From NCBI GenBank assembly GCA_036523395.1, contig DATDEH010000083.1:53686-117685 (forward strand): 64,000 nt of DNA, written 5' to 3'. The notes beneath the pieces are model-generated. The model worked only from the letters and a program-made list of their open reading frames with translations, ran no database searches and had not been told where the DNA came from. Shown here in pieces: positions 9,517 through 48,773 of this stretch. The position numbers and the translations under genes were made by a program. Position 1 is the stretch's first letter; each line of letters opens with the position of its first letter. The DNA comes from Candidatus Limnocylindria bacterium (GTDB taxonomy: Bacteria; Chloroflexota; Limnocylindria; P2-11E).

Positions 9517-9589
<73 letters not shown>

Positions 9590-33794: not shown

Positions 33795-34940
33795 GTGCGC
33801 GTGGCCGTCGCCCTTCTCTCGCTCAGCGCGGTCGCGTTCGGATTCACGTATTCGGACCACGCGCCGCTCATCCCACTCGTGTCGGTCGACTTCCGGCTCG
33901 ACGACCTCGGCGCGGGTCTGCTCTCGACGGCGCTGTTCCTGGCGTACATGGCGACCACGCTCCTCACGACCGGCTTAGGCGAGCGGGTCGGTCCGAAACG
34001 CATGGTCGGCGCTGGGCTCGCCGTGTGCGCGGTCGGCACGGTGATCTTCGCTGCCTCACCGAGCTACAGCGTCGCGCTCGTGGCCAAGGTGACGCAAGGC
34101 ATCGGTTCGGCACTCGCGTTCGTCGCCGGCGCTCGTTACCTGGCCGGGCTCTATCGAGAGCGCCGCAATCACTTCGCGCTCGGTCTCTATGGCGCTGGCT
34201 ATCCACTGGGGAGCGCGCTTGCACTCATCGCGATGCCGACCCTCGCGGGCACGCTTGGCGGCTGGCGTGGCGCGTTCTGGGCCGAAGCAGCGTTCGTCGG
34301 TGGAGTCGCGATCGCGTGGTGGCGCGCGCCGTCGGTGCCGCGCGTGCCGCGCCCCGGGAACATCCGCGACGCGCTGCGCTGCCCCAACTGTTGGTGGACG
34401 AGCCTGCAGCACGCCGCCGGGTTCGGGCTCGGCATCGCCTCCGGCACGTGGATCACCGTGTATCTCCTGCGCGAGTTCCGCCTCCCTCTCGAGCTCTCGG
34501 GCGTGCTCGGCTCGCTCCTCCTTCTCCTGGCGGTGGTGACGCGACCAGTCGGCGGGTGGCTTCTCGCGCGCGAGCACCTGCCGGCGCGACGGGTGATGCG
34601 CATCGGCGATCTCGCGATCGTCGCCGGCGTCGCGCTGCTCGCGATCCCGGAACGCCCGCTACCGATCGCGCTCGGTGGCGCGATCCTCGTGGGTATCGGT
34701 GTGGGTCTGCCCTACTCGGCGGTGTTCAATACCGCCGCGGCATCGCTGCCCGCCGCTCCCGGTGCGGCCCAGGGTCTGGCGGCGATCGGCGGGACGGCGG
34801 GGGTGATGGTGACCGCGCCCGCGATGGGTTACGCCGTGCAGACCTTTGGCTTCTGGTCCGCTTGGCTCTTCGTCGGTGCCGTGTCCGCCGTCGCGTTCGT
34901 CGGGACCGCGTTCATGCGCGGTGAGGAGGAGCTGACGTGA
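33795..34940 (+). CDS. MFS transporter
   Basis: 12 predicted TM helices; the MFS motif region GERVGPKRMVGAGL lies between TM2 and TM3. Confidence 0.75.
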   Translation: MRVAVALLSLSAVAFGFTYSDHAPLIPLVSVDFRLDDLGAGLLSTALFLAYMATTLLTTGLGERVGPKRMVGAGLAVCAVGTVIFAASPSYSVALVAKVTQGIGSALAFVAGARYLAGLYRERRNHFALGLYGAGYPLGSALALIAMPTLAGTLGGWRGAFWAEAAFVGGVAIAWWRAPSVPRVPRPGNIRDALRCPNCWWTSLQHAAGFGLGIASGTWITVYLLREFRLPLELSGVLGSLLLLLAVVTRPVGGWLLAREHLPARRVMRIGDLAIVAGVALLAIPERPLPIALGGAILVGIGVGLPYSAVFNTAAASLPAAPGAAQGLAAIGGTAGVMVTAPAMGYAVQTFGFWSAWLFVGAVSAVAFVGTAFMRGEEELT

Positions 34941-35389
34941 GGTCGATCGCCACGCCCGTGGCGATCGTGCTGCTCGTCGGGGTCGGCGCGGTCGAGGCGA
35001 GCGCGAGCGCCCGGCAGCTCGCGGAGTCGGCCGGACCGCTGCGCCTCGGGGGCGCGGGCGTGGCGTTGACGGCAGCCGGACTCATCGCCAGCGCTGCGAT
35101 CTATCTCGTGCTCGGCCACCTCGCGGCCGACGAGCGTGGTGCATTGCGCGCCGGCGCGATCACCGGGACTCTCGCCGGCCTCGTCGGCGGCGCCCTGCGC
35201 GCGGTCATCATCAGTGGAGTGGTCGCGGATCTCGTCGCGCGGTACGCCGCGGCAGGGGACTGGTTCGTGCCGGCGGCGCTTGCGACATTCGTCCTGGTGT
35301 CGCTCGTGGCGAGCGCTGTGGGTGGCGCGGCGCTCGCGTGGACCGGCCGCAGGCTCAGTCGAGCTGCGCGGTCGCGACCTCCTGCCTGA
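34937..35389 (+). CDS. small membrane protein
   Basis: 150 aa Ala/Gly/Leu-rich with 4 hydrophobic segments; 4-nt overlap with the MFS gene; weak. Confidence 0.3.
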   Translation: MRSIATPVAIVLLVGVGAVEASASARQLAESAGPLRLGGAGVALTAAGLIASAAIYLVLGHLAADERGALRAGAITGTLAGLVGGALRAVIISGVVADLVARYAAAGDWFVPAALATFVLVSLVASAVGGAALAWTGRRLSRAARSRPPA

Positions 35390-36326
35390 CCCGCTCGATG
35401 CTGCCGTCGGCCTGCAGGGACTGGAAGGTCGCGACGACCTCGGGATCGAACTGCGCTCCGGAGCCGGCGATGACCGCGGCCATGCCCTCCTCGATCGTCC
35501 ACGCGGTCTTGTACGGCCGCTTCGAGGTGAGCGCGTCGAAGACATCGGCGACGGAGACGATGCGCGCGGCCAGCGAGATCGCGTCGCCCTTCTTGCCATC
35601 GGGGTAGCCGCGTCCGTCCCAACGTTCGTGATGCTCGCGCGCGATCGCGCGGGCCGTCTCGAAGAAGCGCGCCTCACCGAGCATCACCTCGCCATCGATG
35701 CAGTGCTGCTTGATGACCTCGAACTCCTGGCTCGAGAGGTGATGCTCGCTCTGGAGGATGTGATCCGGCGTATGGATCTTGCCTACGTCGTGCATCACGC
35801 TCGAGTAGCCGAACTCTTCGACGACCTGCGCAGGTAGTCCGAGGCGGGTGCCGATGGCTTCGACATATTTGCGAACGCGAAGCAGATGCGCGCCGGTGGT
35901 CTGGTCCTTGATCGTCGCGGCAAGGAGCAGGTGGCTGATGCCCTGCAGACCGGTCCGCCGGAGCTCCTCGTTCGCGACGCGCTCGGCCTCGAGCGCGGTC
36001 TCGAGCTGCTCGCGGCGCTCGCGCTCACTGCGCAGCATCTCCGCGAGATCCTCCGCGTAACGCGTGCTCTGCCGTTCGAGGAGGCGCAACTCGCGCAGCT
36101 TCGTCTCGTACTCGAGGCGCACCGACTGTTCGCGTCGGTAGACCTCGGCGAAGTCGCTCGCCATCCGCACTGCTTGAGAGTTCGCCTGATCGGCCACGCG
36201 GATCGCCTGCTGGAGCAATTGGCGGAACACCTCGCCGGCGACGGTCGAACTCGCCGGCGGCATCGTGATACTGGGAGAGACTTCGATCACTTCGATCGAC
36301 ATCCGCTCGGGCCTTTCCTCTGGCAT
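35355..36326 (-). CDS. HD-GYP domain phosphodiesterase with N-terminal coiled coil
   Basis: HDVGKI ... HHERWDGRGYPDG signature of HD-GYP c-di-GMP phosphodiesterases; start placed at Met 36326 just after the upstream REC gene. Confidence 0.75.
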   Translation of the reverse strand: MPEERPERMSIEVIEVSPSITMPPASSTVAGEVFRQLLQQAIRVADQANSQAVRMASDFAEVYRREQSVRLEYETKLRELRLLERQSTRYAEDLAEMLRSERERREQLETALEAERVANEELRRTGLQGISHLLLAATIKDQTTGAHLLRVRKYVEAIGTRLGLPAQVVEEFGYSSVMHDVGKIHTPDHILQSEHHLSSQEFEVIKQHCIDGEVMLGEARFFETARAIAREHHERWDGRGYPDGKKGDAISLAARIVSVADVFDALTSKRPYKTAWTIEEGMAAVIAGSGAQFDPEVVATFQSLQADGSIERVRQEVATAQLD

Positions 36327-36333
36327 GGCGGGG

Positions 36334-36705
36334 TCAGCTGTGCGCGAGGATCCCGCGGATAGTGTCGATGAGCTCGAGCGGCCCGAAGGGCTTGGTGAGG
36401 TACTGCGTCGCACCGACCGAGAATCCGGTCTTCTTGTCGCTCTCGCTCTCATGCGCCGTCAGCATCACGACCGGGATGTCCTTCGTGCCCGGCTCGGACT
36501 TGAGCTGCCGGCAGACCTCGAAGCCGTTCGGTCCGGGCCCCATGTCGACGTCGAGGAGGACCAGGTCGGGCGTCTCGGCACGTGCGAGCTCGAGCGCCTC
36601 GGTGCCGTTCTTGGCCTCGAGGATCGTCCAGCCCTGCGTCGACAGGGTGATCCGGACCATCTGGCGGATGGGTACGAGGTCGTCTGCGATAAGGAGTTTT
36701 GCCAT
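36334..36705 (-). CDS. single-domain response regulator (CheY-like receiver)
   Basis: KLLIADD, phospho-acceptor in LVLLDVDMGPGPNG, Thr in VVMLTA, Lys in YLTKPF. Confidence 0.75.
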   Translation of the reverse strand: MAKLLIADDLVPIRQMVRITLSTQGWTILEAKNGTEALELARAETPDLVLLDVDMGPGPNGFEVCRQLKSEPGTKDIPVVMLTAHESESDKKTGFSVGATQYLTKPFGPLELIDTIRGILAHS

Positions 36706-36757
36706 GCGACGCATGGTAGACGGGTCGCGCGTCATCAGACCCCCCCTCCGTGGGGAC

Positions 36758-37462
36758 TTAAGCCCCACGGGCTAGCACTTTCCCCCCGCGCGGGGAGGTC
36801 GGCCCCTGGCGTGTCCACGAATCGAGGGTCACCAGGCCGAGCCGAGCGGCCTCCGCGACGGCCTCGAGGCGTGAGTGCGCGCCGAGCTTGCGAAGCACCG
36901 CCTGAACGTGTGCGCGAAGGGTCGCTGTGGAGATGCCGAGTGATGCCGCGGCTGCCGCGGTGCTCGCGCCCGTGGCGAGGAGATAGAGGACCTCGAGCTC
37001 GCGCGGCGTGAGTGGCTCGATGGCCGTCGCGGGCTCACTGCGTTCCGAGAGCAACAGGCGCTGGAGCTCGCTCGATGAGAAGAGCACCTCGCCTGCCGCT
37101 GCCGCGCGCACCGCGCCGACGACGTCGTTGAAGCCGCGCTCTTTCGTAAGGTGGCCGACCGCGCCGGACCGCGCGACGTCCGCGAGCGTGAACGCGCTGG
37201 GGTCGCCGGTGAGCACGACGATGGCCGTCTTCGGCATCGTCGAGCGGACCGCGCGCGCGAGATCCGCGCCGGTCCCGTCGGGCAGGTGGTAATCGGCGAG
37301 TACGACATCGGGTCGCGCCTCGTCCAGGGCTGCGATCGCGCTCCGCACGTCATGCGCGACCGCCACGACGTCGATGTCGCTGGCGCTGCGCATCCCGACC
37401 CGAAGGAGCTCGGCGAAGAGCCGTTCGTCGTCAACGATCATCACGCGGATCGCGTCGCTCAT
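36758..37462 (-). CDS. NarL/FixJ-family response regulator (REC + LuxR HTH)
   Basis: Receiver (VMIVDDE...VVLADYHLPDGTG...VLTG) plus C-terminal LTPRELEVLYLLATGASTAAAAASLGISTATLRAHVQAVLRKLG. Confidence 0.8.
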   Translation of the reverse strand: MSDAIRVMIVDDERLFAELLRVGMRSASDIDVVAVAHDVRSAIAALDEARPDVVLADYHLPDGTGADLARAVRSTMPKTAIVVLTGDPSAFTLADVARSGAVGHLTKERGFNDVVGAVRAAAAGEVLFSSSELQRLLLSERSEPATAIEPLTPRELEVLYLLATGASTAAAAASLGISTATLRAHVQAVLRKLGAHSRLEAVAEAARLGLVTLDSWTRQGPTSPRGGKVLARGA

Positions 37463-38790
37463 TGCTCGACTTCCGGGCTTCGAGCGGACCGCACCTGCGC
37501 GGCAAGTGCAGCGACGGCGGCCGGATCAAGCTCGCCGCGACCGACGGCGCCCTGAAGAATGCGAACGGCCTCCTGCTCGGTGACCGCGGGGCGGTCCGGG
37601 CGATCGACGAGCAGCGCTTCGAACCGATCGGCCACGCTCACGATGCGGACCTCGAGCGGGATCTTCTCGGCCGTGAGGTGATCCGGATACCCACCGCCGT
37701 CGAGACGCTCGTGGTGCCAGCGAACGATCGGCAGGATCGGCGCGAGTGGCGACACGTGCCTGAGGAGCTCTTCGCCCAGGAGCGGATGCTGCTCGATCGC
37801 CTCGCGCTCGTGTGGCGTGAGCTCGCCGGCCTTGACGACGATCGGCGGTGGCAGCTTCGCGTTGCCGACATCGCGAAGGAGCGCGCCGAGTCGGATCGTG
37901 CCGATCGCGACCTGGTCGAGCCCGAGCACCTGCGCGATGGAGACGGAGCGTGCCGCGACGCGTTCGCTGTGGCCCATCATGAATCGATCGTGCGCCTCGA
38001 GCGACGTCGCGAGCGTGATGAGCGCGTCCGCCGCGGCGCCCATGTCGCGCACGAGGCGCATCTCGCGCACGAGCAGATCCGCGTGTCGCGAAAGCTCGCC
38101 GTCCAGCCGCGCGAACTCGGTGGCGGGTGTCTCCGAGCCCCGCGCGATGACGAGAACGGCGGTGCCGCCATCCACGAGGCCCGCGTCGGGCGCCACACCT
38201 TCGTCGATGAGAACGAGGTCAACGGCGTCCGCCCCGTCCTTCGCTATGTCAAACCGCGACGCGAGCAGCTTCTCTGCCGTGGCGCGCCGCGCCCCATCCT
38301 TCAGCGAGACCGCGGCCATCGGCCGGGCGCGCTGGGGACGTGCCGCCAGCGGCTCGAGCCGCGGCGGACGGGCGTTCCGCGTCTGGAGGAGCACAGCGTC
38401 GATTCGGGCGAGGAGCTCAGCCGCGTTCCACGGTTTTGTGACGTAGTCCGCGGCGCCGCACGAGAGGCCACGCACCTTGTCGACGACCTCGCCGCGGGCC
38501 GAGAGGAAGATCACCGGGATGTGCGCGATCGCGCCGTCGCTCTTGATGCGCAGGCAGACGTCGTAGCCGTCGGTGTCCGGCAGCATCACGTCCAGCAGTA
38601 CAAGGTCGGGGACGAGCTCGCGTACCAGCGCGAGGCCCTGGCCGCCGTCGCGCCCAACGGCGACCTTCATGCCGTTCGCCTGCAGGCGGCGCTGAAGGAC
38701 ATCGGCGGACGCCGGGTCGTCTTCCACCACCACGACGCTCGTGGCCTTCTTCGCGGTGCCGGGCAGGGGCGTCATCGCCAGATCGTTCAT
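37459..38790 (-). CDS. response regulator with HD-GYP-type output domain
   Basis: N-terminal receiver (VVVVEDD...LVLLDVMLPDTDG...IFLSA...YVTKPW) and C-terminal HSERV...HHERLDGGGYPD. Confidence 0.75.
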   Translation of the reverse strand: MNDLAMTPLPGTAKKATSVVVVEDDPASADVLQRRLQANGMKVAVGRDGGQGLALVRELVPDLVLLDVMLPDTDGYDVCLRIKSDGAIAHIPVIFLSARGEVVDKVRGLSCGAADYVTKPWNAAELLARIDAVLLQTRNARPPRLEPLAARPQRARPMAAVSLKDGARRATAEKLLASRFDIAKDGADAVDLVLIDEGVAPDAGLVDGGTAVLVIARGSETPATEFARLDGELSRHADLLVREMRLVRDMGAAADALITLATSLEAHDRFMMGHSERVAARSVSIAQVLGLDQVAIGTIRLGALLRDVGNAKLPPPIVVKAGELTPHEREAIEQHPLLGEELLRHVSPLAPILPIVRWHHERLDGGGYPDHLTAEKIPLEVRIVSVADRFEALLVDRPDRPAVTEQEAVRILQGAVGRGELDPAAVAALAAQVRSARSPEVEQ

Positions 38791-39548
38791 GTCGCGAGAC
38801 CTGTCTGCTCTTCGCCGAGAAGGTGACGCATCGCGACGACGAACTTCGAAGGTCGCTCGTTCACCATGTGGTCGCGGATGTAGGAATAGAGCTCATCCGC
38901 CCAGCGAGGCAGTTCCTGGAACCACTTCACTTCTATGATCACGCCCGGCTCGCGCGCGATGACCGGGCCGATGCGGCAGGGCATCGAGCTCGCGTCGTTC
39001 GTCACCCACGGGACGGCGAGATACATCAGGTTGTGATCCGCGGTGATGCGCATGCTTCCGTCGGGCGCCGAGTACGCGATGCGGTTGTACTGCGTCACCA
39101 CGACCGGTCGCACGCCGTCCGCGATCGTGCGCTCCGCGCGCTCGACGAGCCCGTTCTTGTCCCGCGGCATCTTCTGCTCGCCGCGGAGATACGCGGGCAG
39201 GGACATCGTCGGCACCTCGTAGCGCTCCTTGAACGACGTGCTGGCGGAGTCGTCCTTCATCTCGAGATAGACGGTCCCGCCGGCCAGGATCTCGTTCGGC
39301 CGTGTCCGGTGATATTCGCGGACGCGGATCTGGAGTGCCTTTCCCGCCTCGGCCGCGCGGAACACGCTCCAACCGTACGTATCGAGGTACGCGGTCGTCG
39401 ACCACTGGTATGGGCGGTCGTCACGATCGAGCCCGAGGTAGGTTCCGCTCGTGCGGAGCGCGAGGCGCGCGACGGACTCGTTCACCAGGAAGCGGTGCTC
39501 GTTGCGACGCTCGGTGTCGCTGCCTGCGTCGAGAACGATGTTCTTCAT
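38787..39548 (-). CDS. VTC/CYTH-like (triphosphate tunnel fold) domain protein
   Basis: EHRFLV...YQWSTTAYLDTYGWSVF...KALQIRVREYH...GTVYLEMKDD...SFKERYEV follows the VTC/CYTH pattern (ExK ... Y.S.YFDT ... R.K.R.R ... E.K); family assignment from memory. Confidence 0.45.
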   Translation of the reverse strand: MKNIVLDAGSDTERRNEHRFLVNESVARLALRTSGTYLGLDRDDRPYQWSTTAYLDTYGWSVFRAAEAGKALQIRVREYHRTRPNEILAGGTVYLEMKDDSASTSFKERYEVPTMSLPAYLRGEQKMPRDKNGLVERAERTIADGVRPVVVTQYNRIAYSAPDGSMRITADHNLMYLAVPWVTNDASSMPCRIGPVIAREPGVIIEVKWFQELPRWADELYSYIRDHMVNERPSKFVVAMRHLLGEEQTGLAT

Positions 39549-41098
39549 GCCGTGACAACCACGTGATCGGCGGCCGCCGCAGGCAGCGTGAGGTCGATGA
39601 TCGCGCCGGCCTCTCCGGGATTGGCGACGCGGATGGTGCCACCGTGCAGCGCAACGGCGAGCCGGCAGAACGCGAGACCGAGGCCCGTCCCACCGCGGCT
39701 CCGACCGCTGGGGCCCTGATAGAACCGGTCGAACACGTTCGGAGCATCGGTCGTCGTGATACCGGGGCCCGTGTCGGATACGCGGATCAGAACGAAGTCG
39801 GATCCCTCGTCGGCCTTTCGGGCTTCGACGCGGACCTTGCCGCCGGAAGGTGTGTGCTTGACCGCGTTCGCGAGCAGATTCGTGAGCACACGGACGACGA
39901 GACCGTCGTCGACGAAGACCGTCGCATCACCAACTTCGCTCGTGACGGTGATGTTCTTCGCGCGAGCTTCAGGTTTCACCTGGGAGATGCTCTTGCGCGT
40001 GAGGTCCTCAAGACGCATCGCCTGGGGCACCGCCTCGAGACGCCCCTCCTCGAGCTTGTAGACATCGAGAAGAGCATTGACCATCCGCAGCATCTCGCTG
40101 ACGTTCGATTCGGAAAGGCCGAGCAGCTCGGTGAACTCGGGCCGCGACGGGTCGAGCTGACCCATGCCGACGAGCTGGAGGAAGGCAACGACGCTGTTGG
40201 CCAGGTTCCGGATGTCGTGGCCGAGCATCCCAATGAGCTCCTGACGCGAGCGCTCGACCTTCCTGAGCTCTTCGTTGCTGGCGCGGAGCTCATCCTGTAG
40301 CCGCTTCGTGAAGAGGGCGCTGCGCACGCGGGCGGCGAGCTCGACGGGCTCGAATGGCTTTGCGACATAGTCGACGCCGCCGGCCTCGAAGCCAGTGACG
40401 ACATCGTCGGTCTGATCCTTCGCCGTGACGAAGATCACCGGGATAGCCGCGGTGCTCGCGTTCACCTTGAGCCGGCGGCAGGTCTCCCAGCCGTCTATGC
40501 CGGGCATCATCACGTCGAGCAGGACGAGATCGGGATGGTCGCGCTCGGCGATCGCGAGCGCCTGTTCGCCGCTGGACGCGCGCAATACCGCGCAGCCCAG
40601 GGCCGCGAGACGGCGCGAGATGAGATCGAGGTTCGCCGGCTCGTCGTCGACGGCGAGAACGGTGCCGAGGCGCTGGACCGGCGCCACGGCCGCGTCCTGT
40701 CGCCTCGTCCCCAGAGCGAGCGGGGCATTCTCGGGCAGGAAGCGCGCGAGCACCGCGCGCAGTTCGGCCGGGGCGTACGGCTTGGACACGAAGTCATCGC
40801 AGCCTGCGTCGATCGCGCGTTGCCGGTCTTGCTGCATCGCGAGCGCCGACACGGCGATGATCGGGATGCGCGCCGCCCAAGGCTCTTCGCGCAGCTTGCG
40901 AGTGACGGCCCACCCGTCGATTCGCGGCAGCAGCAGGTCTACGAGGATCGCGTCGGGGTGCTGGGCGCGCGCGATGTCGAGGCCGCTCTGGCCATCCATC
41001 GCGATGAGCGCCTCGTGACCGGCCGCGCGGATGATGCGCTGCGCGACGTCGAGGTTGTTGGCCTCGTCCTCGATGACGAGAACGCGAGCCACGCTCAT
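39545..41098 (-). CDS. hybrid signalling protein: two receiver domains followed by HisKA-HATPase kinase core
   Basis: REC1 (VLVIEDE...ILVDLLLPRIDGW...KPY), REC2 (VLAVDDE...VLLDVMMPGIDGW...KPF), H-box MLGHDIRNLANS, G-boxes DTGPGI and GGTGLGLAF; start at 41098 overlaps the upstream kinase stop by 4 nt. Confidence 0.8.
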   Translation of the reverse strand: MSVARVLVIEDEANNLDVAQRIIRAAGHEALIAMDGQSGLDIARAQHPDAILVDLLLPRIDGWAVTRKLREEPWAARIPIIAVSALAMQQDRQRAIDAGCDDFVSKPYAPAELRAVLARFLPENAPLALGTRRQDAAVAPVQRLGTVLAVDDEPANLDLISRRLAALGCAVLRASSGEQALAIAERDHPDLVLLDVMMPGIDGWETCRRLKVNASTAAIPVIFVTAKDQTDDVVTGFEAGGVDYVAKPFEPVELAARVRSALFTKRLQDELRASNEELRKVERSRQELIGMLGHDIRNLANSVVAFLQLVGMGQLDPSRPEFTELLGLSESNVSEMLRMVNALLDVYKLEEGRLEAVPQAMRLEDLTRKSISQVKPEARAKNITVTSEVGDATVFVDDGLVVRVLTNLLANAVKHTPSGGKVRVEARKADEGSDFVLIRVSDTGPGITTTDAPNVFDRFYQGPSGRSRGGTGLGLAFCRLAVALHGGTIRVANPGEAGAIIDLTLPAAAADHVVVTA

Positions 41099-43407
41099 GA
41101 CCTCGCCGCCGCGCCCGTCAGGGGACCCTCGGTCAGCGCCGTGGCGCGCACCCGGACCGGCAGCGTGAAGAGGAACGTGCTGCCGGCGCCGACGGTGCTC
41201 TCCACCCAGATGCGGCCGCCATGCAGGGCGATGAGCCGCTTCGAGATGGCCAATCCCAGTCCGGTGCCGCCGTAGCGGCGCGTCGTGGATGCGTCGACCT
41301 GGCGGAACTCGTCGAAGATGTACGTCTGCGCCTCCGGTGGGATCCCCACGCCGGTGTCCACGACCGCGATGGTGATCCAGCCATCGACGATGGTCGCGCG
41401 GACCGTCACTCCGCCGTGTTCGGTGAACTTCACCGCATTTGCCATGAGGTTGACGAGCACCTGACGGATGCGCGCCCGGTCCGCCCACGCCGCGGGCAAA
41501 GAGATCGCGACATCGGCGCGCAGGGTCAGAGATTTCGCATCCGCGTGCGCACGCATGAGCTCGATGACGTCGTCGATCACGAGGGGGATATCGACCTCCT
41601 CGATGTTGAGCTCCATCTTGCCGGCCTCGATCTTCGCGAGGTCGAGAAGTCCGTTGATGAGGCCGAGCAGGTTGTCCGCCGCCTGCACGACGCGCTCGAG
41701 ATCCGCGGTCTGCTGCTCGGTGAGATCGCCGTCGAGCCCATCGAGCATCAGCTTCGTATACCCGATGATCGCGTTCATCGGCGTGCGCAGCTCGTGGCTG
41801 ACGGACGCGAGGAACTCGCTCTTCAGCCGGTTGGCGCGCTCGAGCTGCAGGTTGTTGTCCTTCAGCTCGTTGACCAGGTCCGCGTTCTCCTTGGCGACGC
41901 TGACGAGCCGGGCGATCGTCCGCAGCGCGCGCGCCTCGGTGTCGGTGATCTCGCGCGGTCCCTTGAAGTACGCCGACAGGAGACCCGCGGCGCGGCCGCG
42001 CGCTGACAGCGGGATGTGCGCGACGTAGGGCAGCGGAGTCTGCGGCACGTGCAGATGCTGGATCTGGTTCGGGTCGTAGACCGGATTCACCAAGACCCGT
42101 GTGGCGAGCATCACCGCCGTGTCCGCGGTGACACCGATCGTCGTCGGCGCGATCAGGCGGCCGCCCGAACCCATCGGCGCGCCAGGCGCGTCCTCGCGGA
42201 TCACGATCGATGCGCCGTCCGCGTGGAACAGCGCGACCATGCGGGACAGCGACTCAGCGAAGATGCGCTCGCGGTCGGTGACACCGACGACCGCGTCGGC
42301 GACCTCGTTCACGGTGCGCACCTCGGCCATGTATTCCTCTTGGGCACGCTGACGTTCGCTCAGCGATCTGGCCATCGTGTCGAAGGCTCGCTCGAGCGTG
42401 CCGATCTCATGATGCGACCGCTGCCGGATGCGCACTCCAAGGTCGCCGGCCTCGATCTGCTGTGCCGCGGCGGCGAGATCTTCCAACGGCTTGGTCATCG
42501 CCGTCGCCGAGCGATAGGCGAAGAACGTGACCAGCCCGATGAGGCCCGCTGCGAGCACGAACATGATGACGAGCAACGCGCGCTGCGAGTTGTTGAGCGC
42601 GTCGACCGGGAGCAAGACCGCGAGAACGCCAAGAGTTGCCCGCTGGCCGATGACCCGGAAGATCCCGTAGAAGTTCCGTTCACCGATCTTTACGTCTTGG
42701 GCGACCACGTCGCCCGGAGCACCGTCGACCTGCTCCAACGTGGGGAACGCGACTCCGTCGGGGATCTCCGTTGTGTATGCGCGCACTTTGCCGTTCCAGA
42801 TGAGTGCGATCTGCGCGTCGCTCTTGGTGTTGATCGCCTTCAGGTAGTCGTTCCCCAGGATCGTGCCGACCTCGAGGAAGCCGATCTTCTCGCCGTCCTT
42901 GTTGCTGCGGATCTCCCAGATCGCGCGGATGACCAGACCGTGCGCGGGTTCGTCGGTCAGGACCCAGGACTGCTGCGCGCCGGCCAGGGCGTCGGTGAGG
43001 ATCTGCGGGAGAAGGGTCTCGCCTGGCACAAAGTCCTGCGCACCGGCGATGAGATGGCCATCGATGTCCGACACGCTCATGAAGTCGACGCGCAGACGCG
43101 ATTTCTGCGGTAGGAGGAACGCCTCAAGGCTCTGGCGGTCCTTGGCCTCTGCAAGCGCGCGAGTGGTGTCCAGGCCTGCCATCAGCTGGGCAGCCTTCAG
43201 GGCGAGGTCTTTCTGATCCTGAATGTCGTTCTTCGCGGCGACGGCGACCACGTTCGCCTCGTCTTCGAACTGCCTCGTGACGAGCTCGTTGGACTCGTAC
43301 AGGGCGACGGCCGCGAGAACCACAAGGGCGCCTATGGCCACTGCCACCGTCCGACCGACGAGGGCGCGTAGCAGACTCGGCGCGAAGAGTTGCGTGAAGA
43401 AACGCAC
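41095..43407 (-). CDS. membrane sensor histidine kinase (periplasmic sensor, HAMP, GAF-like region, HisKA, HATPase)
   Basis: Two TM segments around an about 250-aa extracytoplasmic domain, HAMP (LEDLAAAAQQIEAGDLGVRI), H-box SVSHELRTPMNAIIGY, N/G boxes NLMANAVKFT, DTGVGI, GGTGLGLAISK. Confidence 0.8.
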   Translation of the reverse strand: MRFFTQLFAPSLLRALVGRTVAVAIGALVVLAAVALYESNELVTRQFEDEANVVAVAAKNDIQDQKDLALKAAQLMAGLDTTRALAEAKDRQSLEAFLLPQKSRLRVDFMSVSDIDGHLIAGAQDFVPGETLLPQILTDALAGAQQSWVLTDEPAHGLVIRAIWEIRSNKDGEKIGFLEVGTILGNDYLKAINTKSDAQIALIWNGKVRAYTTEIPDGVAFPTLEQVDGAPGDVVAQDVKIGERNFYGIFRVIGQRATLGVLAVLLPVDALNNSQRALLVIMFVLAAGLIGLVTFFAYRSATAMTKPLEDLAAAAQQIEAGDLGVRIRQRSHHEIGTLERAFDTMARSLSERQRAQEEYMAEVRTVNEVADAVVGVTDRERIFAESLSRMVALFHADGASIVIREDAPGAPMGSGGRLIAPTTIGVTADTAVMLATRVLVNPVYDPNQIQHLHVPQTPLPYVAHIPLSARGRAAGLLSAYFKGPREITDTEARALRTIARLVSVAKENADLVNELKDNNLQLERANRLKSEFLASVSHELRTPMNAIIGYTKLMLDGLDGDLTEQQTADLERVVQAADNLLGLINGLLDLAKIEAGKMELNIEEVDIPLVIDDVIELMRAHADAKSLTLRADVAISLPAAWADRARIRQVLVNLMANAVKFTEHGGVTVRATIVDGWITIAVVDTGVGIPPEAQTYIFDEFRQVDASTTRRYGGTGLGLAISKRLIALHGGRIWVESTVGAGSTFLFTLPVRVRATALTEGPLTGAAARS

Positions 43408-43417
43408 GAAGACGGGC

Positions 43418-44257
43418 CTAGATGCCGGCCAGGATCTTCTGCCCTTCGGGGCCCTTCACGAAGTCGATGAAAGCCTTGATGGTTGGCTTCACTTTCGCCG
43501 GCTCCGGGTTGTACACGAAGAACAGGGGACGGCGGATGGGATACGTGCCATTCGCCAGTGTCTCCTTGGTGGCGGCGACGTTGTCGATCGTCAGCAACCG
43601 TACGTCAGCAGTGCTGAAGGCCTTCGCGTTCATGGTCATCATTCCGATCGAGTCTTTGAAGGACCCGATGGCCTTGAGCGTCTCGTCGATCTGGAAGACC
43701 TCGACCGCGTCTTTCGAGTAGACCGGCTTCGTCGCGCCGAAGAAGTACGACTCGAAGGCCGAACGGGTTGAAGACTCGGGCTCGCGCAGCAGCACGCGGA
43801 TCTTGCCTGGAGAACCACCGACGTCCTTCCAGTCGGTGATCTGGCCAGTGAAGATCTTCGCGACCTGGTCCTTGGTAAGCGCCTTGACCACGCTCGACGC
43901 GTTCACACCGACGCCGGTACCGGATGCGCCGATCGGCACACTCTCGACAGTGCCCTTTTCCGCCGCTCGAAGATCACGGCTGATGAAGCCGAGATCCACG
44001 GTGCCATTCACGGTGAGCGACACGCCGGCGTCCGAGCCAACGTCGTCAAGTCCCTGCCAGAGCACCGTGGGGTGCACTTCAGAGAAGCCACTCGTGAGCG
44101 CCCTGACGGCATCGAGCGCCCCGCCGCCGCCCTTGGTGACGAAGGTGCCGGCCAGCGGATCCGGGGTCGACTTTGTCGCGATGGGACTTGCGCCGCCGCA
44201 GCTCGCCACCAGCAGCGCCACGAGGATCAGTTTCAGAGATTTATGTAGGAGCGTCAT
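43418..44257 (-). CDS. periplasmic substrate-binding lipoprotein (PstS/PBP-like), first gene of the signalling operon
   Basis: Lipobox LLVASCGG; type-II periplasmic-binding-fold features (TVNGTVDLGFISRDL ... GSPGKIRVL ... NGTYPIRRPLFFVY); only 10 nt upstream of the kinase gene. Confidence 0.65.
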   Translation of the reverse strand: MTLLHKSLKLILVALLVASCGGASPIATKSTPDPLAGTFVTKGGGGALDAVRALTSGFSEVHPTVLWQGLDDVGSDAGVSLTVNGTVDLGFISRDLRAAEKGTVESVPIGASGTGVGVNASSVVKALTKDQVAKIFTGQITDWKDVGGSPGKIRVLLREPESSTRSAFESYFFGATKPVYSKDAVEVFQIDETLKAIGSFKDSIGMMTMNAKAFSTADVRLLTIDNVAATKETLANGTYPIRRPLFFVYNPEPAKVKPTIKAFIDFVKGPEGQKILAGI

Positions 44258-44380
44258 GTACCCCTTGTCCTCCAGGCCGGCGCTCGCCGGTTAAGCCAAT
44301 TGTGGGAAGTGTGGCTCCGCTAACTGGCGTGTCTATCCCTCTAACGGGGAGGGGACGCTCCGAAACGGCCTAATTAGGCC

Positions 44381-44611
44381 CTATACGTCAGTTGGGGTAG
44401 CTGCGGGACGGCTGCGCTTGGCCGGCAGGCGGTGCAGGAGCCGCTCAGAGGACGCCGCGATCTCCGCGACCGCCGCATCGAAAGCCTGGGCGTTTGCGGG
44501 CGCCGGTGCCCTGAATCCGCTGATCTTGCGGACGAACTGGAGCGCCGCCGCCCGGACCTCTTCTTCGGTCGCGGGAGCTGTGCCACGGAGGGTCTTGATG
44601 CTTCGACACAT
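44381..44611 (-). CDS. small conserved protein (DUF2277-like, MCRSIKTL N-terminus)
   Basis: 76 aa starting MCRSIKTLRG, a pattern I recall for the DUF2277 family; family number from memory. Confidence 0.5.
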   Translation of the reverse strand: MCRSIKTLRGTAPATEEEVRAAALQFVRKISGFRAPAPANAQAFDAAVAEIAASSERLLHRLPAKRSRPAATPTDV

Positions 44612-44666
44612 ACACGAGAACGATACGGCGAATCGGCGTCTGCGGCGCCGTCGCTAGCATCCGGGC

Positions 44667-45644
44667 GTGCTCGTCCTGGATAAGCGCGAGGTCGAATCGC
44701 TGCTTGATCCGGACGCCCTGCGCGCCGCCGTGGCCGCGGCCCTATCCGATCTCTCGGCCGGACGAGCCTCGATGCCCACTCGCATCGCCGCCCTCGTCGC
44801 CGAGCGCGACGCGCTGCTGGCGGCGATGCCGGCGTACCTGCCGAGCGCCGGCGCGCTCACGACGAAGCTCGTTTCGCTCTTTCCGCGCAACACCGATCGG
44901 CCGACGCATCAGGCCGTGATCGTCGCCTTCGATCCGCTGACCGGAACGCCAGCGGCACTCATGGACGGCGAGGCCATCACCGCGGCGCGGACCGCCGCGG
45001 GTTCCGCGCTCGCCACCGATCTGCTCGCTCGGAAGGACGCCAAGACGCTCGCAGTCCTCGGTGCGGGCGTGCAGGCGCGCGCGCATCTTCGCGCGCTGAC
45101 GCGCGTGCGCCGGTTCCGCGAGATCCTCATCGGCGCCCGAGACCTCGAAAAGGCCAAGAACCTCGCGCGCGAGGTCGCGGCAGAGACAGGCCTCCCCGTT
45201 CGCGCCGCGTCATTCGCCGATGCCGTGCGCGCCGCCGACGTCGTGTGCGCGTGCACGCATAGCGCGGAGCCGGTCGTGCGTCGCCAGTGGCTGCGTCCCG
45301 GTACGCACGTGAACTCCGTCGGTTACAACACCGCGGGCCGCGAGGTCGATGGCGAGACTGTCGCGGCGGCGCTGGTCGTGATCGAATCGCGCGCCGCCGC
45401 GCTCGCGCCACCGCCGGGCGGTTCGAACGATCTCCTCTGGCCGATCCGCGACGGACTCATCGACGCGAAACACATCCACGCCGAGCTAGGCGAGGTCGTG
45501 TCCGGCGCGCGTCCCGGTCGCGCCGATGCAACGCAGCTGACGCTCTACAAGTCCGTGGGCGTGGCCGTCGAAGACGCAGCCGCGGCGGCGCTCGTGTTGC
45601 GGCTCGCGCGCGGGCGCGGCATCGGAAGGACGATCGAGATCTAG
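44667..45644 (+). CDS. ornithine cyclodeaminase/mu-crystallin family protein
   Basis: Rossmann LAVLGAGVQARAHL NAD-binding motif and overall about 325-aa OCD architecture. Confidence 0.85.
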   Translation: MLVLDKREVESLLDPDALRAAVAAALSDLSAGRASMPTRIAALVAERDALLAAMPAYLPSAGALTTKLVSLFPRNTDRPTHQAVIVAFDPLTGTPAALMDGEAITAARTAAGSALATDLLARKDAKTLAVLGAGVQARAHLRALTRVRRFREILIGARDLEKAKNLAREVAAETGLPVRAASFADAVRAADVVCACTHSAEPVVRRQWLRPGTHVNSVGYNTAGREVDGETVAAALVVIESRAAALAPPPGGSNDLLWPIRDGLIDAKHIHAELGEVVSGARPGRADATQLTLYKSVGVAVEDAAAAALVLRLARGRGIGRTIEI

Positions 45645-46002: not shown

Positions 46003-47808
46003 TCAGTACTCGCCGCCGGCGCCTTTGCGTGGACCTTCGAGAAGCTGTCCGACCCCGCGCTGCTCGCCCTGCAGCGCGTCGAGCACGCGCAGCGCCGCGT
46101 CGATCGTGAGCCCGCGGCGGAAGTCATCCAGAGCGGGCCGCAGCGCCGGCGACGGCTGGTCGTTCGGATCGCTCGAGTTCGACGGATCGCCGGTCGGCTC
46201 CTGCGGCTGTCCCGTGCTCGGGCCCGGCTGCGGCGAGGCACCGGCGGGGGGCTGACCGCTCTGCCCGGGTCCCTGCGCGCCGGGGTTGGGGCTTCCGGGC
46301 TGACCCTGCCCCGGCCCGGGCTGCTGGCCGGGCTGCGGCGGACGGGCCGACAGCAGGCGCTGGATGACCTCGAGGTTGAACTTCGCGTCGCGATCGCCGG
46401 GATCGATGCGGAGCACTTCGCGATAGGCATCGCGCGCGTCCTCGTAGCGGCCCATGCGGAAGAGCGTGTTGCCGCGGTCGTACTGCGCGGTCGCGCGGAG
46501 CTTCAGATCCTTACCGCCGATCGCCTTGCCGTATTCGGGAAGCGCCTGCGGATACTGGGCGAGCTTGTGCAGCGCGTTCGCGGCGTTCACGGCGAGCTCG
46601 GGCGAGTCGGGCAGCTCCAGCTGGAGATCCCGGTATTCGGCGAGCGCTCCGGCGTAGTCACCCGCTGCGAACAGGCCGTTCGCCGCCTCGTTCGAGACCG
46701 CGTTCTCGCCACACGCGATCCCCCAGAGCGCGGCCGAGCCGATGGCGATGCCGAGGATCCGGCGTCCGCGACGTGCGACCGGCCGGCCGAGGCCGTGCGG
46801 CATTGGCATCGCGCGGCGCTCCGAGATCAGCCACTCGAGCAGGAGGAGCGCGACGGCGAGCGCGACGAACGGCGCGGACTTCTCGTCAGGGACCGCGCCC
46901 GCATCATCGAGTGGTTCGACGGCTTCCATCGTGCGGAGCTCGCGCACGAGATCGCTGATCACGGTGTCGTTGCCGGCGTACCGGAAGTAGCGCCCACCGC
47001 CCTTCTCGGCGACGGAACGCAGGGTCTCCTCCACGAGGCGACTCACGATCGGAGTGCCCGCGGCGCTCCGCAGGTAACCGGTGAACTTCCCGTTGTTCGC
47101 GTCGTACGTCGGGATCTGCCCGCCGGTGGTCGTCCCAATACCGACCGCGTAGATGCGTGCACCCTTGAGCTCGCGGGCCTCGGGCACGTCGCTGTTCGTG
47201 ATCTCGCCATCGGAGACGAGCACGATCGCGCGCTGCCGCAGCGGATCAAGGTCCGGCGAGAACGCGCCGAGCGCGGACTCGAGGCCGGCGCGAAGCGACG
47301 ATCCCTCTGTCAGGCGCAGTCCGCGCCCGGAGTTGTCGAGGACCTCGCCGAGGACGCGCGGGTCCGTTGTCGGGGGGTAACGGACGGCCCCCTGCCCCTT
47401 GAAGAGAACGAGTGCCACACGGCTGCCGATCATCTGGCGCCCGAGCTCTTCCGAGAAGTGCCGCGCGGCACGCAACCGGTCGGGTACGACGTCCTGCGTG
47501 GCCATGCTCTGCGATACGTCGACGGCGAGGGCGATATCCACGCCGAGCCGTCGCGCGGCGCGAGCGCGCAGGTCGACGTATGGACCGGCGAGCGCGATGA
47601 CGAGGCTCGCGAGCGCGAGGAACACGAACGTCGTCTTGAGCCACCAGCGCGTTCCGCTCCGCGACACGAGGGCAGCCGCGCCACCGAACGACCGGACCGC
47701 GCGGATGCGTGCGCGATACGCGAGAGCGACGAGCACCGCGATCAAGGGAAGTGCCGCGAGCAGCAGGAGCATCTCCGGCCGCGCGAACCCAACGGCTGGA
47801 ATGGTCAC
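46003..47808 (-). CDS. VWA-domain protein with C-terminal TPR repeats and Pro/Gln-rich tail (BatB/BatC-like)
   Basis: MIDAS-like LAVDVSQSM, TM anchor, TPR-like YDRGNTLFRMGRYEDARDAYREVLRIDP, low-complexity PQPGQQPGPGQGQPGSPNPG. Confidence 0.7.
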   Translation of the reverse strand: MTIPAVGFARPEMLLLLAALPLIAVLVALAYRARIRAVRSFGGAAALVSRSGTRWWLKTTFVFLALASLVIALAGPYVDLRARAARRLGVDIALAVDVSQSMATQDVVPDRLRAARHFSEELGRQMIGSRVALVLFKGQGAVRYPPTTDPRVLGEVLDNSGRGLRLTEGSSLRAGLESALGAFSPDLDPLRQRAIVLVSDGEITNSDVPEARELKGARIYAVGIGTTTGGQIPTYDANNGKFTGYLRSAAGTPIVSRLVEETLRSVAEKGGGRYFRYAGNDTVISDLVRELRTMEAVEPLDDAGAVPDEKSAPFVALAVALLLLEWLISERRAMPMPHGLGRPVARRGRRILGIAIGSAALWGIACGENAVSNEAANGLFAAGDYAGALAEYRDLQLELPDSPELAVNAANALHKLAQYPQALPEYGKAIGGKDLKLRATAQYDRGNTLFRMGRYEDARDAYREVLRIDPGDRDAKFNLEVIQRLLSARPPQPGQQPGPGQGQPGSPNPGAQGPGQSGQPPAGASPQPGPSTGQPQEPTGDPSNSSDPNDQPSPALRPALDDFRRGLTIDAALRVLDALQGEQRGVGQLLEGPRKGAGGEY

Positions 47809-48773
47809 GGCGTCCTCCGGAAGACCGTGAGCGCGAGGACGAGCTGCAGCGCGAGGAGTCCCGCGCCGGCGGCCACGAATGGCAGCGAGACATCGTCGGT
47901 GGAGATGAACGCGCGCGTGCCGACGCGTGCCTTCTCGAGGGTCTGGATCTCGCGGTATACATCGCGGAGCGCGGTCTCGTCGGACGCTCGGTAATAGAGA
48001 CCACCGGTCATCTCGCTCATCCGCTTCATGGTCGCCTCATCGACATCCGCGCGCGATCGCGCCGCCACCGCACCGATCGTGTACAGGCGCACGCCGAGCA
48101 GCTTCGCGATCTGCGCGGCCTCGGTCGGCGCGATGTCACCGGCATTGTTCGAACCGTCGGTGAGGAGGATCGCGACCTTGCTGCGGGCGCTGGACTCGCG
48201 CACGAGGAGGAGGCCGGTCGCGAGCCCGGTGCCGATCGCCGTTCCGTCGCGAAGTGGCCGGCCCGCGGCGAGCGGCTCCACCAGGCGCTGCGCCGCCGTG
48301 TAGTCGAGCGTGAGCGGGCTGAGCACCATGGATTCCGCGCTGAAGATCACGATGCCCACGCGGTCGTTCTTCAGGCCGCCGAGGAAGTCGTGCACCACCC
48401 TCTTGACGACCTCGATGCGCGACTGCCCGCCGAGATCGGGTGTCGACATCGAGGACGAAGTGTCAAGCACGACGACGATGTCGATCCCCTCGGCCGGCAC
48501 GTCGAAGGCGGCCTGGACGACGGACGGCGCCGCGAGCGCGACGATGAGCGCGGTCGCGGCCAGCACGCGCAGCGGCAGCAGCAGCCAGCGCGTCCGGACG
48601 CGCCAGCTGCCGTGAGCGCGTGGCACGAGCCCGAGCGAGGAGAAGAGCACGCCCCCGCTGCGACCGCGTTCGCGGCGGAGCTCGAGCGCGGCCGCGATCA
48701 CCACGATCGCGAGCAACGGGAGCGCCCACGGCGCCTCGAAGCGGATCTCCGTCCCGAAGATGCGTGTGCTCAC
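47805..48773 (-). CDS. VWA-domain membrane protein (BatA-like)
   Basis: N-terminal TM, MIDAS VVVLDTSSSM ... LLTDGSNN, C-terminal TM. Confidence 0.75.
   Translation of the reverse strand: MSTRIFGTEIRFEAPWALPLLAIVVIAAALELRRERGRSGGVLFSSLGLVPRAHGSWRVRTRWLLLPLRVLAATALIVALAAPSVVQAAFDVPAEGIDIVVVLDTSSSMSTPDLGGQSRIEVVKRVVHDFLGGLKNDRVGIVIFSAESMVLSPLTLDYTAAQRLVEPLAAGRPLRDGTAIGTGLATGLLLVRESSARSKVAILLTDGSNNAGDIAPTEAAQIAKLLGVRLYTIGAVAARSRADVDEATMKRMSEMTGGLYYRASDETALRDVYREIQTLEKARVGTRAFISTDDVSLPFVAAGAGLLALQLVLALTVFRRTP

Follow-up and report, generated by a model that had tools for sequence, protein, structure and literature searches.

A Vtc4-like VTC-domain protein encoded within a conserved two-component and c-di-GMP signalling operon of Candidatus Limnocylindria

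We describe an operon of eight genes, all on the minus strand at positions 35355-44257 of a 64,000-nucleotide stretch of contig DATDEH010000083.1 from a Candidatus Limnocylindria bacterium; this whole stretch is referred to below as the window. The operon encodes a PstS-family binding lipoprotein, two histidine kinases (HK1 and HK2), a VTC-domain protein of the triphosphate tunnel metalloenzyme type that resembles yeast Vtc4, a response regulator in which a receiver (REC) domain is joined to an HD-GYP domain, a LuxR-type response regulator, a single-domain receiver and a stand-alone HD-GYP protein. The VTC protein is the informative member of the cluster, being the constant partner of enzymes of cyclic di-GMP (c-di-GMP) metabolism in three different gene architectures and being found elsewhere fused to a histidine kinase. 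We propose, tentatively, that the operon links an external phosphate-type signal to gene expression and c-di-GMP breakdown, and that the VTC protein makes or handles polyphosphate in association with the kinases.

Results

The VTC protein

The VTC protein (253 amino acids; 38787-39548, minus strand) matches the Pfam VTC family with an E-value of 2.2e-23 and, according to Pfam, carries that domain only, with no SPX domain. Its confident AlphaFold2 model, built from an alignment of 35 sequences (predicted local distance difference test score, pLDDT, 86.6; predicted template-modelling score, pTM, 0.86), is a closed eight-stranded beta-tunnel whose nearest relatives are the Vtc proteins, yeast Vtc4 ranking first in a Foldseek comparison with the PDB (E = 3e-15). 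A preliminary description of this DNA had called the protein VTC/CYTH-like, a call that both the Pfam match and the comparison of folds bear out.

Individual residues were compared by aligning yeast Vtc4 with 19 members of the subfamily to which this protein belongs and with 113 further bacterial VTC representatives; for Vtc4 we used what we take to be the full-length sequence, which agrees with the HMMER output in its numbering and in the segments shown there. Arg15, Glu17 and Arg19 of the window protein align with Arg196, Thr198 and Lys200 of Vtc4. Invariant throughout the subfamily, like these three, are Arg75/Arg77, aligned with Arg264/Arg266 of Vtc4, Glu96/Lys98 (Glu279/Lys281), Lys107/Arg109 (Lys294/Arg296), Tyr154/Arg156 (Tyr359/Arg361), Arg167 (Arg373), Glu206/Lys208 (Glu426/Lys428) and Ser234/Lys235 (Ser457/Lys458), and the equivalents of Lys458, of the metal-binding Glu426 and of Ser457 are kept in nearly all of the 113 outgroup proteins as well. 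A local HMMER alignment had paired Arg81/Arg83 with Arg264/Arg266 of Vtc4; this pairing was overturned by the multiple alignment and the pattern of invariant residues, which give Arg75/Arg77 (RxREY against RLRWY). In yeast Vtc4, Lys458 is the catalytic lysine, and what sets the polymerase apart from tunnel enzymes that are hydrolases or cyclases is that basic residues take the place of their acidic patch, made up of four glutamates (PMC4641920). The window protein resembles Vtc4 at these positions except at Glu17 and Arg19.

A profile search of 1.84 billion representative sequences returned 1,345 VTC-like proteins. Among these, about nine near-full-length representatives at 50% identity scored between 196 and 370 bits, and the next near-full-length match scored 83 bits, with fragments filling the interval. 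The high-scoring group has a signature of its own, comprising RxExRF, P(Y/W)xW(S/R)TTxYCDT and RPSKF, and, as judged from these sequences, the VTC proteins described here form a distinct and sharply separated subfamily. Exact copies of the window protein were found only on short metagenome contigs, and its homologues are annotated as Chloroflexota or Candidatus Limnocylindria.

Conservation of the operon

When each species was represented by a single genome, scanning gave 67 loci, nearly all of them in Limnocylindria metagenome-assembled genomes; a few bear other taxon labels, which are probably binning errors. In tblastn searches of all these loci, for which the eight proteins of the window served as queries, the order lipoprotein, HK1, HK2, VTC, REC/HD-GYP, LuxR-type regulator, single REC and HD-GYP was found to be kept wherever the contig is long enough, so that the gene order of the window recurs in 67 species-level genomes. 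It is the same even though the VTC orthologues share only 53-96% identity with the window protein, and the junctions between the genes remain overlapping or very short, with the overlapping stop and start codons themselves conserved. The single REC protein is 67-97% identical to its orthologues; among the more distant relatives, no other protein of the cluster is conserved so well. One locus (L079:3462-9546) contains a trimmed form of the cluster, from which the lipoprotein and HK1 are gone while HK2, VTC and the four genes downstream are kept.

The flanking genes are also common to the relatives: upstream they are an ornithine-cyclodeaminase-family gene and DUF2277, and downstream they encode a small membrane protein, a transporter of the MFS_1 family, an ABC system of the peptide type and an HtrA-like protease. 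We ruled out a mobile element or a defence island because these same housekeeping-type genes flank the cluster in all relatives; it is a vertically inherited chromosomal operon of Candidatus Limnocylindria.

In 45 of the 64 loci that have both HK2 and VTC, a ninth gene, which we call MFSX, lies between them and directly upstream of VTC (for example L006:6925-8427, L005:8491-9987 and 43 further loci). It encodes a multi-pass membrane protein of about 500 amino acids with weak matches to the MFS_1, TLC (ATP/ADP transporter) and HEAT families and a HEAT-like C-terminal tail; sequence searches found no solved homologue. MFSX is missing from the clade of the window and from five loci of a clade at 64-69% identity, and a tblastn search found no copy elsewhere in the window. 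In the trimmed locus L079 it survives as an in-frame remnant of 111 amino acids, internally deleted, that retains the N-terminus and the C-terminal tail. The ancestral cluster had MFSX directly before VTC, and the lineage of the window lost it.

Kinase fusions and other gene contexts

Members of the VTC subfamily also occur in a different lineage within single proteins that include a kinase. Protein P0127 (L078:1005-2990), of 661 amino acids and one of the high-scoring representatives, has the domain order cNMP_binding-VTC-HisKA-HATPase_c. A second such fusion, P0271 (L075:10001-11992), is 64% identical to it, and several contigs, including one of 402 kb, carry its gene. The VTC domain of P0271 is 38% identical to the window VTC protein over its full length. 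We found no description of this domain architecture. The contigs bearing the fusions have a GC content of 0.66-0.67.

The genes at L075 encode, in order, a cNMP-GGDEF protein, the fusion P0271, a HAMP-containing kinase, three PBP_like_2 proteins, an orthologue of MFSX, a single REC and a PAS-GGDEF-EAL protein. The kinase is an orthologue of HK1 with an extracytoplasmic domain 39% identical to that of window HK1; the one PBP_like_2 protein of the three that we compared is 51% identical to the window lipoprotein; and the MFSX orthologue aligns with an hhalign probability of 100% and 60% identity. A third architecture, around P0125, combines an MFS-like gene, VTC, FIST and PAS-GGDEF-EAL. The VTC subfamily is thus accompanied by c-di-GMP enzymes in all three architectures and by a histidine kinase in two, and MFSX or an MFS-like gene stands alongside VTC in each of them, bar the lineages that have lost it.

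Layout of the operon

The list of open reading frames for the window places the eight genes head to tail, and the sequence contains four ATGA overlaps of stop and start codons, at 41095/41098, 39545/39548, 38787/38790 and 37459/37462, just as first described. The remaining junctions are gaps of 10 nucleotides between the lipoprotein and HK1 genes, about 22 nucleotides between the LuxR-type and single REC genes and 7 nucleotides between the latter and the stand-alone HD-GYP gene. Overlaps of this 4-nucleotide kind are common within operons of GC-rich genomes and would be unremarkable by themselves for that reason; it is their conservation that shows more than chance. The overlaps and short gaps, together with that conservation, support the view that the eight genes are a single translationally coupled unit, and Pfam agrees with the domains originally assigned to each of the eight proteins.

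Two of the gene starts require comment. The maximal reading frame of the single REC gene is 36334-36768, and that of the last HD-GYP gene is 35355-36452. The REC gene most likely starts at the ATG at 36735, which is preceded by GGAGGGGGGG, a GGAGG-rich Shine-Dalgarno stretch, and the HD-GYP gene most likely starts at the ATG at 36326, 7 nucleotides past the REC stop codon, the start at 36452 being unlikely. The presence of the GGAGG-rich stretch favours the former choice, and both are preferred because the lengths that result equal those of the genes called in the relatives.

A GC-rich hairpin with a perfect 8-bp stem, CCGTGGGG-CTTAAGT-CCCCACGG, lies at 36748-36770 on the minus strand, spans the LuxR stop codon and reaches almost to GGAGGGGGGG, the Shine-Dalgarno sequence of the REC gene. 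In most orthologues, too, the equivalent spacer contains a GC-rich stem-loop. As a conserved RNA structure the hairpin was rejected, RNAalifold having found no compensatory pair among nine close relatives; from its position, it could set the ratio of expression between the first six genes and the last two. A scan of 34800-45000 revealed no intrinsic terminator-like site on the minus strand within the cluster, the four such sites in that interval all being on the plus strand and at chance level, and no sigma-70-like promoter, although in this phylum such a scan says nothing about promoters. A leader riboswitch or other known RNA was likewise discarded, as a search of the 64-kb window at the Rfam gathering thresholds gave no match in the leader; its only match was a tRNA gene at 9519-9589 (minus strand).

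The kinases

HK1 (770 amino acids; 41095-43407, minus strand) is a membrane sensor histidine kinase consisting of a transmembrane helix, an extracytoplasmic domain of about 240 residues, a second transmembrane helix and HAMP, GAF_2, HisKA (E = 1.8e-19) and HATPase_c (E = 1.4e-30) domains, with a canonical H-box, SHELRTP. The part between the two membrane helices has a borderline Pfam match to dCache_3. HK2 (517 amino acids; 39545-41098, minus strand) is a cytoplasmic kinase of the form REC-REC-HisKA-HATPase_c. Its gene has ATGA overlaps on both sides, and in the protein the two receivers (E = 9e-55) sit N-terminal to a kinase core with an HATPase_c domain (E = 2.2e-26), an H-box reading GHDIRN and a HisKA match (E = 4.6e-06) that, at 27.0 bits, barely exceeds the cut-off of 26.9. 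All five REC domains of the cluster keep the acidic pocket, the phospho-acceptor aspartate, the threonine or serine and the lysine (DD...D...T/S...K).

The assignment of a two-component system with a PstS-family binding lipoprotein is supported by these Pfam domains. A multistep phosphorelay, as it had been termed, is not: searches of the eight proteins with Pfam and NCBIfam found no HPt domain (PF01627) or other phosphotransfer family, and we have dropped a classical His-Asp-His-Asp relay on this ground. Since there is no HPt domain and HK2 is regulated by receivers of its own, a cascade of two kinases fits better. The trimmed cluster of L079 keeps HK2 and all of the receivers in the absence of the lipoprotein and HK1, which suggests that HK2 is the core kinase for the three receivers downstream. 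It therefore seems likely that HK2 is the kinase of those receivers and that HK1 provides the upstream input.

The c-di-GMP and transcriptional outputs

HD-GYP, LuxR-type and single-domain REC outputs had all been assigned to the cluster, and Pfam supports each of them. The stand-alone HD-GYP protein (323 amino acids; 35355-36326, minus strand; Pfam HD_5, E = 4.9e-35) has an N-terminal coiled-coil region and contains the other His/Asp metal ligands as well as the motifs MHDVGK and HHERWDGRGYP, that is, the full HD...HHExxDGxGYP set, which is canonical in 55 of 55 orthologues. In phmmer searches it matched the proven c-di-GMP phosphodiesterase PmGH (4mcw; E = 6.6e-40) and a cyclic GMP-AMP phosphodiesterase (5z7c; E = 6.8e-38). 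In the alignment with 4mcw, and with what we take to be the metal-ligand numbering of PmGH, the glutamate ligand of the third metal is replaced by threonine.

The HD-GYP domain of the REC-linked protein (443 amino acids; 37459-38790, minus strand; Pfam REC with HD_5/HD) is degenerate, reading LRDVGN where HDxGK is expected, although HHERLDGGGYP is kept. The motif could be located in 62 of 65 orthologues and in all of these it reads L[RK]D[VIL]G[NH], with arginine or lysine in place of the HD histidine, so that we refer to the domain as RD-GYP. The cluster had been credited with two c-di-GMP phosphodiesterases; only the stand-alone protein, which is canonical and PmGH-like, has the sequence features of such an enzyme, the REC-linked one lacking the metal-binding histidine. 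There is a precedent for such a protein in PA2572 of Pseudomonas aeruginosa, a YN-GYP protein that has no detectable c-di-GMP hydrolysis and yet has a regulatory role (PMC3411652). It is most likely, from these motifs, that the cluster encodes one active HD-GYP with its own separate receiver and one non-catalytic relative.

Between the receiver and the RD-GYP domain, at residues of about 140-260, lies a linker of some 120 residues containing ...DLVLIDEGV...AVLVIARG..., which weakly resembles a second, degenerate receiver; it has 32-35% local identity to true REC domains over 61-75 residues.

The single-domain, CheY-like receiver (133 amino acids; 36334-36735, minus strand; Pfam REC, E = 3.1e-26) is always directly upstream of the stand-alone HD-GYP gene, with a modal gap of 7 nucleotides. 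It had been described as a CheY-like sink; because it constantly adjoins the canonical HD-GYP, a REC/HD-GYP pair split into two proteins fits at least equally well. The NarL/LuxR-type response regulator (234 amino acids; 36758-37462, minus strand; REC, E = 3.7e-19; GerE, E = 2.1e-15) has matches below threshold in NCBIfam to the NarL-type regulators MctR, MadR and NarL.

No GGDEF cyclase is encoded in the window, in agreement with the preliminary description; the motif GG[DE]EF is absent from all window reading frames of at least 150 amino acids, and tblastn of two GGDEF proteins against the window gave no match.

The binding lipoprotein

The first gene of the operon (43418-44257, minus strand) encodes a PBP_like_2 lipoprotein of the PstS family (279 amino acids; Pfam E = 1.6e-31) with the lipobox LVAS-C. 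Its closest solved relatives are the PstS-type phosphate-binding proteins 1twy (7e-26) and 4gd5 (8e-25), and the SR and R...SST motifs are kept. There are no genes for the Pst permease and ATPase (PstCAB) in the cluster or its flanks, and the neighbour of the lipoprotein gene is the histidine kinase gene. Our best guess from these sequence comparisons is that the ligand would be a phosphate-type anion; pyrophosphate, polyphosphate, phosphite or some different oxyanion would be just as plausible.

Surrounding genes

The DUF2277 gene (44381-44611, minus strand; 76 amino acids) lies 123 nucleotides upstream of the lipoprotein gene on the same strand, and its position is kept in the relatives, including L079, which has neither lipoprotein nor HK1. 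Further upstream, at 46003-48773 on the minus strand, are VWA-TPR and BatA/VWA genes forming a Bat-like cluster of the aerotolerance type, which also lies beside the operon in relatives. At the other end, a reading frame of 150 amino acids (34937-35389, plus strand) for which Pfam gives no match runs towards the stand-alone HD-GYP gene and shares 35 nucleotides with the 3' end of that gene; it is conserved in relatives, and its counterpart at L006 has a weak match to the DUF4010 membrane proteins.

Discussion

Proposed mechanism

The gene content, the motifs, the fold of the VTC protein, the conservation of the operon, the kinase fusions and the co-occurrence of VTC with c-di-GMP genes are the observations from which we propose a mechanism. 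We put it forward tentatively, as a possibility that we favour but would not yet call probable: an external phosphate-type signal would pass by way of the lipoprotein and HK1 to HK2, and from there to transcription, to c-di-GMP breakdown and to an adaptor, while a kinase-associated VTC protein would make or handle polyphosphate. The lipoprotein, clearly homologous to PstS, would bind the anion outside the cell and dock on the extracytoplasmic domain of HK1, and HK1 would then phosphorylate the receivers of HK2 and so set the activity of HK2. As the motifs and the order of the genes suggest, HK2 would in turn phosphorylate three receivers, of which the LuxR-type regulator would alter transcription and the single REC would turn on the adjacent canonical HD-GYP to hydrolyse c-di-GMP, the REC-RD-GYP protein being a putative non-catalytic adaptor or c-di-GMP-binding element. 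VTC would make polyphosphate from ATP, or at least bind and process a polyphosphate chain, and would do so in physical association with the kinase layer, a proposal that starts from its fold and residues, the fusion and the co-occurrence. The phosphate, polyphosphate and energy state of the cell might thereby be coupled to c-di-GMP and to gene expression, the direction of control being part of the prediction.

A more general proposal may be framed for the whole VTC subfamily, namely that its members are working polyphosphate polymerases or chain sensors built directly into signalling through histidine kinases and c-di-GMP, either as a free subunit or as a kinase fusion, and that they were ancestrally paired with MFSX. 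As it stands, this generalization is somewhat doubtful. That VTC has a role linked to signalling is suggested by the conserved Limnocylindria operon, the repeated pairing of VTC with a membrane protein and the VTC-kinase fusions beside GGDEF and EAL genes.

Several points weigh against the mechanism as we have drawn it. At the receptor, the lipoprotein scores 128 bits against the NCBIfam PstS family TIGR02136, under the cut-off of 206.6, and the N-terminal anion-binding motif GSTS reads GGGG; because of this low score and diverged motif, the ligand may not be orthophosphate. The route of phosphotransfer, that is, which protein phosphorylates which, is a prediction. In the VTC protein, the equivalent of Lys200 is Arg19, which is invariant in the subfamily (RxExR[FY]) and is also arginine in 28 of the 113 other bacterial VTC proteins, a conservative change in which the charge is kept; and Glu17, threonine in Vtc4, occupies one of the four positions of the acidic patch of the hydrolases and is glutamate in nearly all bacterial VTC proteins. 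Our search of the literature found no demonstrated activity for any bacterial VTC-domain protein, and it is for this reason from the conservation of residues that the label of polymerase is drawn. The association with the kinase also has to be read with care, since in most relatives VTC follows the MFSX gene rather than HK2. AlphaFold2 models the VTC domain of the fusion as well folded and places a linker of about 30 residues, predicted with low confidence, between it and the DHp helix of the kinase; a continuous signalling helix from VTC to kinase, which we had considered, is replaced in the model by this flexible linker, and the fusion accordingly argues for physical association and not for a particular signalling mechanism.

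Alternative explanations

The fusions have the order cNMP_binding-VTC-HisKA-HATPase, which puts VTC in the position usually taken by a sensor domain, and the window shows translational coupling of the VTC gene to that of HK2. Both features would suit a VTC protein that is not catalytic and acts as a cytoplasmic sensor of polyphosphate, inorganic triphosphate or nucleoside triphosphates reporting to the kinase, so that signals from outside (through the lipoprotein and HK1) and inside (through VTC and HK2) would be integrated. The conserved residues cannot separate such a sensor from an enzyme, because the residues that bind the chain are those that catalyse. The invariance of the equivalents of Lys458, Glu426 and Ser457 nevertheless exceeds the needs of a pure binding module, the modelled linker provides no helical connection to the DHp helix, and in most relatives it is the membrane protein gene, not a kinase gene, that VTC adjoins, and for the present we regard a sensor without catalysis as unlikely. 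The frequency with which MFSX stands directly upstream of VTC (45 of 64 loci) might instead mean that the two proteins are the bacterial counterpart of the yeast VTC complex, making polyphosphate and moving either it or a nucleotide or phosphate substrate across the membrane, with the signalling genes as regulators, in the way that other systems for polymer secretion are controlled by c-di-GMP, and the form in the window a reduced one that lacks the membrane partner. The pair also occurs beside FIST and GGDEF-EAL genes, an MFSX orthologue with 60% identity is present at the fusion locus, and an extracytoplasmic PstS-like protein could sense an exported product. However, MFSX has been lost in the window clade and deleted in L079 with VTC and the signalling genes intact, from which it follows that the function of VTC does not depend on MFSX; MFSX is moreover only weakly MFS- and TLC-like, is unrelated to the channel helices of the Vtc1 type and has no solved homologue by sequence, and we know of no description of polyphosphate export by MFS proteins. 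It is true that yeast Vtc4 works atop a membrane channel (PMC4641920), and this is a point in favour of such a machine, which we consider less likely again than the sensor.

Class IV adenylate cyclases of the CyaB type belong to the same superfamily as VTC, and VTC might likewise make a nucleotide-derived messenger that GAF or cNMP domains sense and that the HD-GYP proteins might degrade. The cNMP_binding domains that are fused at L075 to VTC as well as to the GGDEF protein beside it, the GAF domain of HK1 and the lack of a GGDEF gene in the window are all compatible with such a messenger. Against it, the fold and residues are of the Vtc4 type, basic where the cyclases and hydrolases have an acidic two-metal patch and with glutamate at only one of the four positions (PMC4641920), and the stand-alone HD-GYP is closely related to a proven c-di-GMP enzyme. 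Because VTC is found together with GGDEF genes in the other architectures, c-di-GMP from ordinary cyclases is the simpler messenger, and we judge a novel one to be improbable. Two-component genes are numerous and often clustered, and the eight genes could be mere neighbours with no common function, VTC being a passenger. This we think highly improbable, given that the order is held across genomes in which VTC is only 53-96% identical, that the overlapping stop and start codons are conserved, and that the same families recur, rearranged and fused, in another lineage.

Implications and comparison with known systems

The context described here is the first clear functional one for bacterial VTC proteins and gives them a testable role. 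If that role is confirmed, it would show how abundant uncultured soil bacteria couple their phosphate status to a switch of lifestyle, and the VTC protein would be a soluble homologue of the yeast polymerase that is amenable to experiment. If the more general proposal for the subfamily were also to hold, there would be an unrecognized route, independent of PPK, from polyphosphate to c-di-GMP, and a bacterial counterpart, possibly an evolutionary relative, of the eukaryotic VTC machine for synthesis and translocation of polyphosphate. The individual domains are well known, and operons that mix two-component and c-di-GMP genes are common. Vtc4 is a eukaryotic polyphosphate polymerase, and bacteria are thought to use PPK enzymes. 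Our literature search uncovered no link of VTC domains to histidine kinases, HD-GYP or c-di-GMP and no assigned function for a bacterial VTC protein.

Among described signalling systems, the RpfC/RpfG pathway of Xanthomonas is alike in being a two-component pathway with an HD-GYP output under the control of a receiver, the pathway proposed here having further branches and an input from a binding protein. It consists of a sensor kinase and a REC-HD-GYP protein that degrades c-di-GMP, with no second kinase, binding protein or VTC. Here, in contrast, there are two kinases, a binding protein outside the cell and a VTC protein, with no HPt domain, and the HD-GYP predicted to be active is a separate protein beside a single REC, whereas it is the fused REC-HD-GYP protein that lacks the HD histidine. 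In this last respect the fused protein is like PA2572, a receiver joined to an HD-GYP domain in which the HD dyad is replaced (PMC3411652). The replacement differs, being arginine or lysine followed by aspartate (RD/KD) rather than YN, so that the aspartate is kept together with the other histidine and aspartate ligands and the GYP motif; inactivity of the fused protein is predicted from its sequence.

At the receptor end, the encoding of a secreted binding protein beside a histidine kinase with a large extracytoplasmic domain recalls LuxP-LuxQ, TorT-TorS and PstS/PhoR, and it is by analogy with LuxPQ and TorTS that we suggest docking of the lipoprotein to HK1. The cluster differs from PstS/PhoR in having neither PstCAB nor PhoU, and in a binding protein that falls under the PstS cut-off and has an altered binding motif.

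Other bacterial VTC proteins share the domain and the conserved tunnel residues of the window protein, which is set apart from them by its own signature, by the gap in profile scores and by its signalling gene neighbourhood. The usual partner of the other bacterial VTC genes is a gene for a DUF4956 membrane protein. The literature that we searched contained nothing on VTC with DUF4956, nor on polyphosphate in Limnocylindria. Yeast Vtc4 belongs to the same Pfam family, and its tunnel residues, including the equivalent of the catalytic Lys458, are kept in the window protein (PMC4641920). The two are about 20% identical, with Lys200 replaced by arginine and Thr198 by glutamate; the bacterial protein is free-standing, with 253 amino acids and neither an SPX domain nor helices of the Vtc1 type, there is no Vtc1-type transmembrane partner in the window, and the polymerase activity predicted for it would be exercised within a bacterial signalling operon. 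No known system combines these elements, and the novelty lies in finding a Vtc4-like tunnel enzyme constantly present within a two-component and c-di-GMP system.

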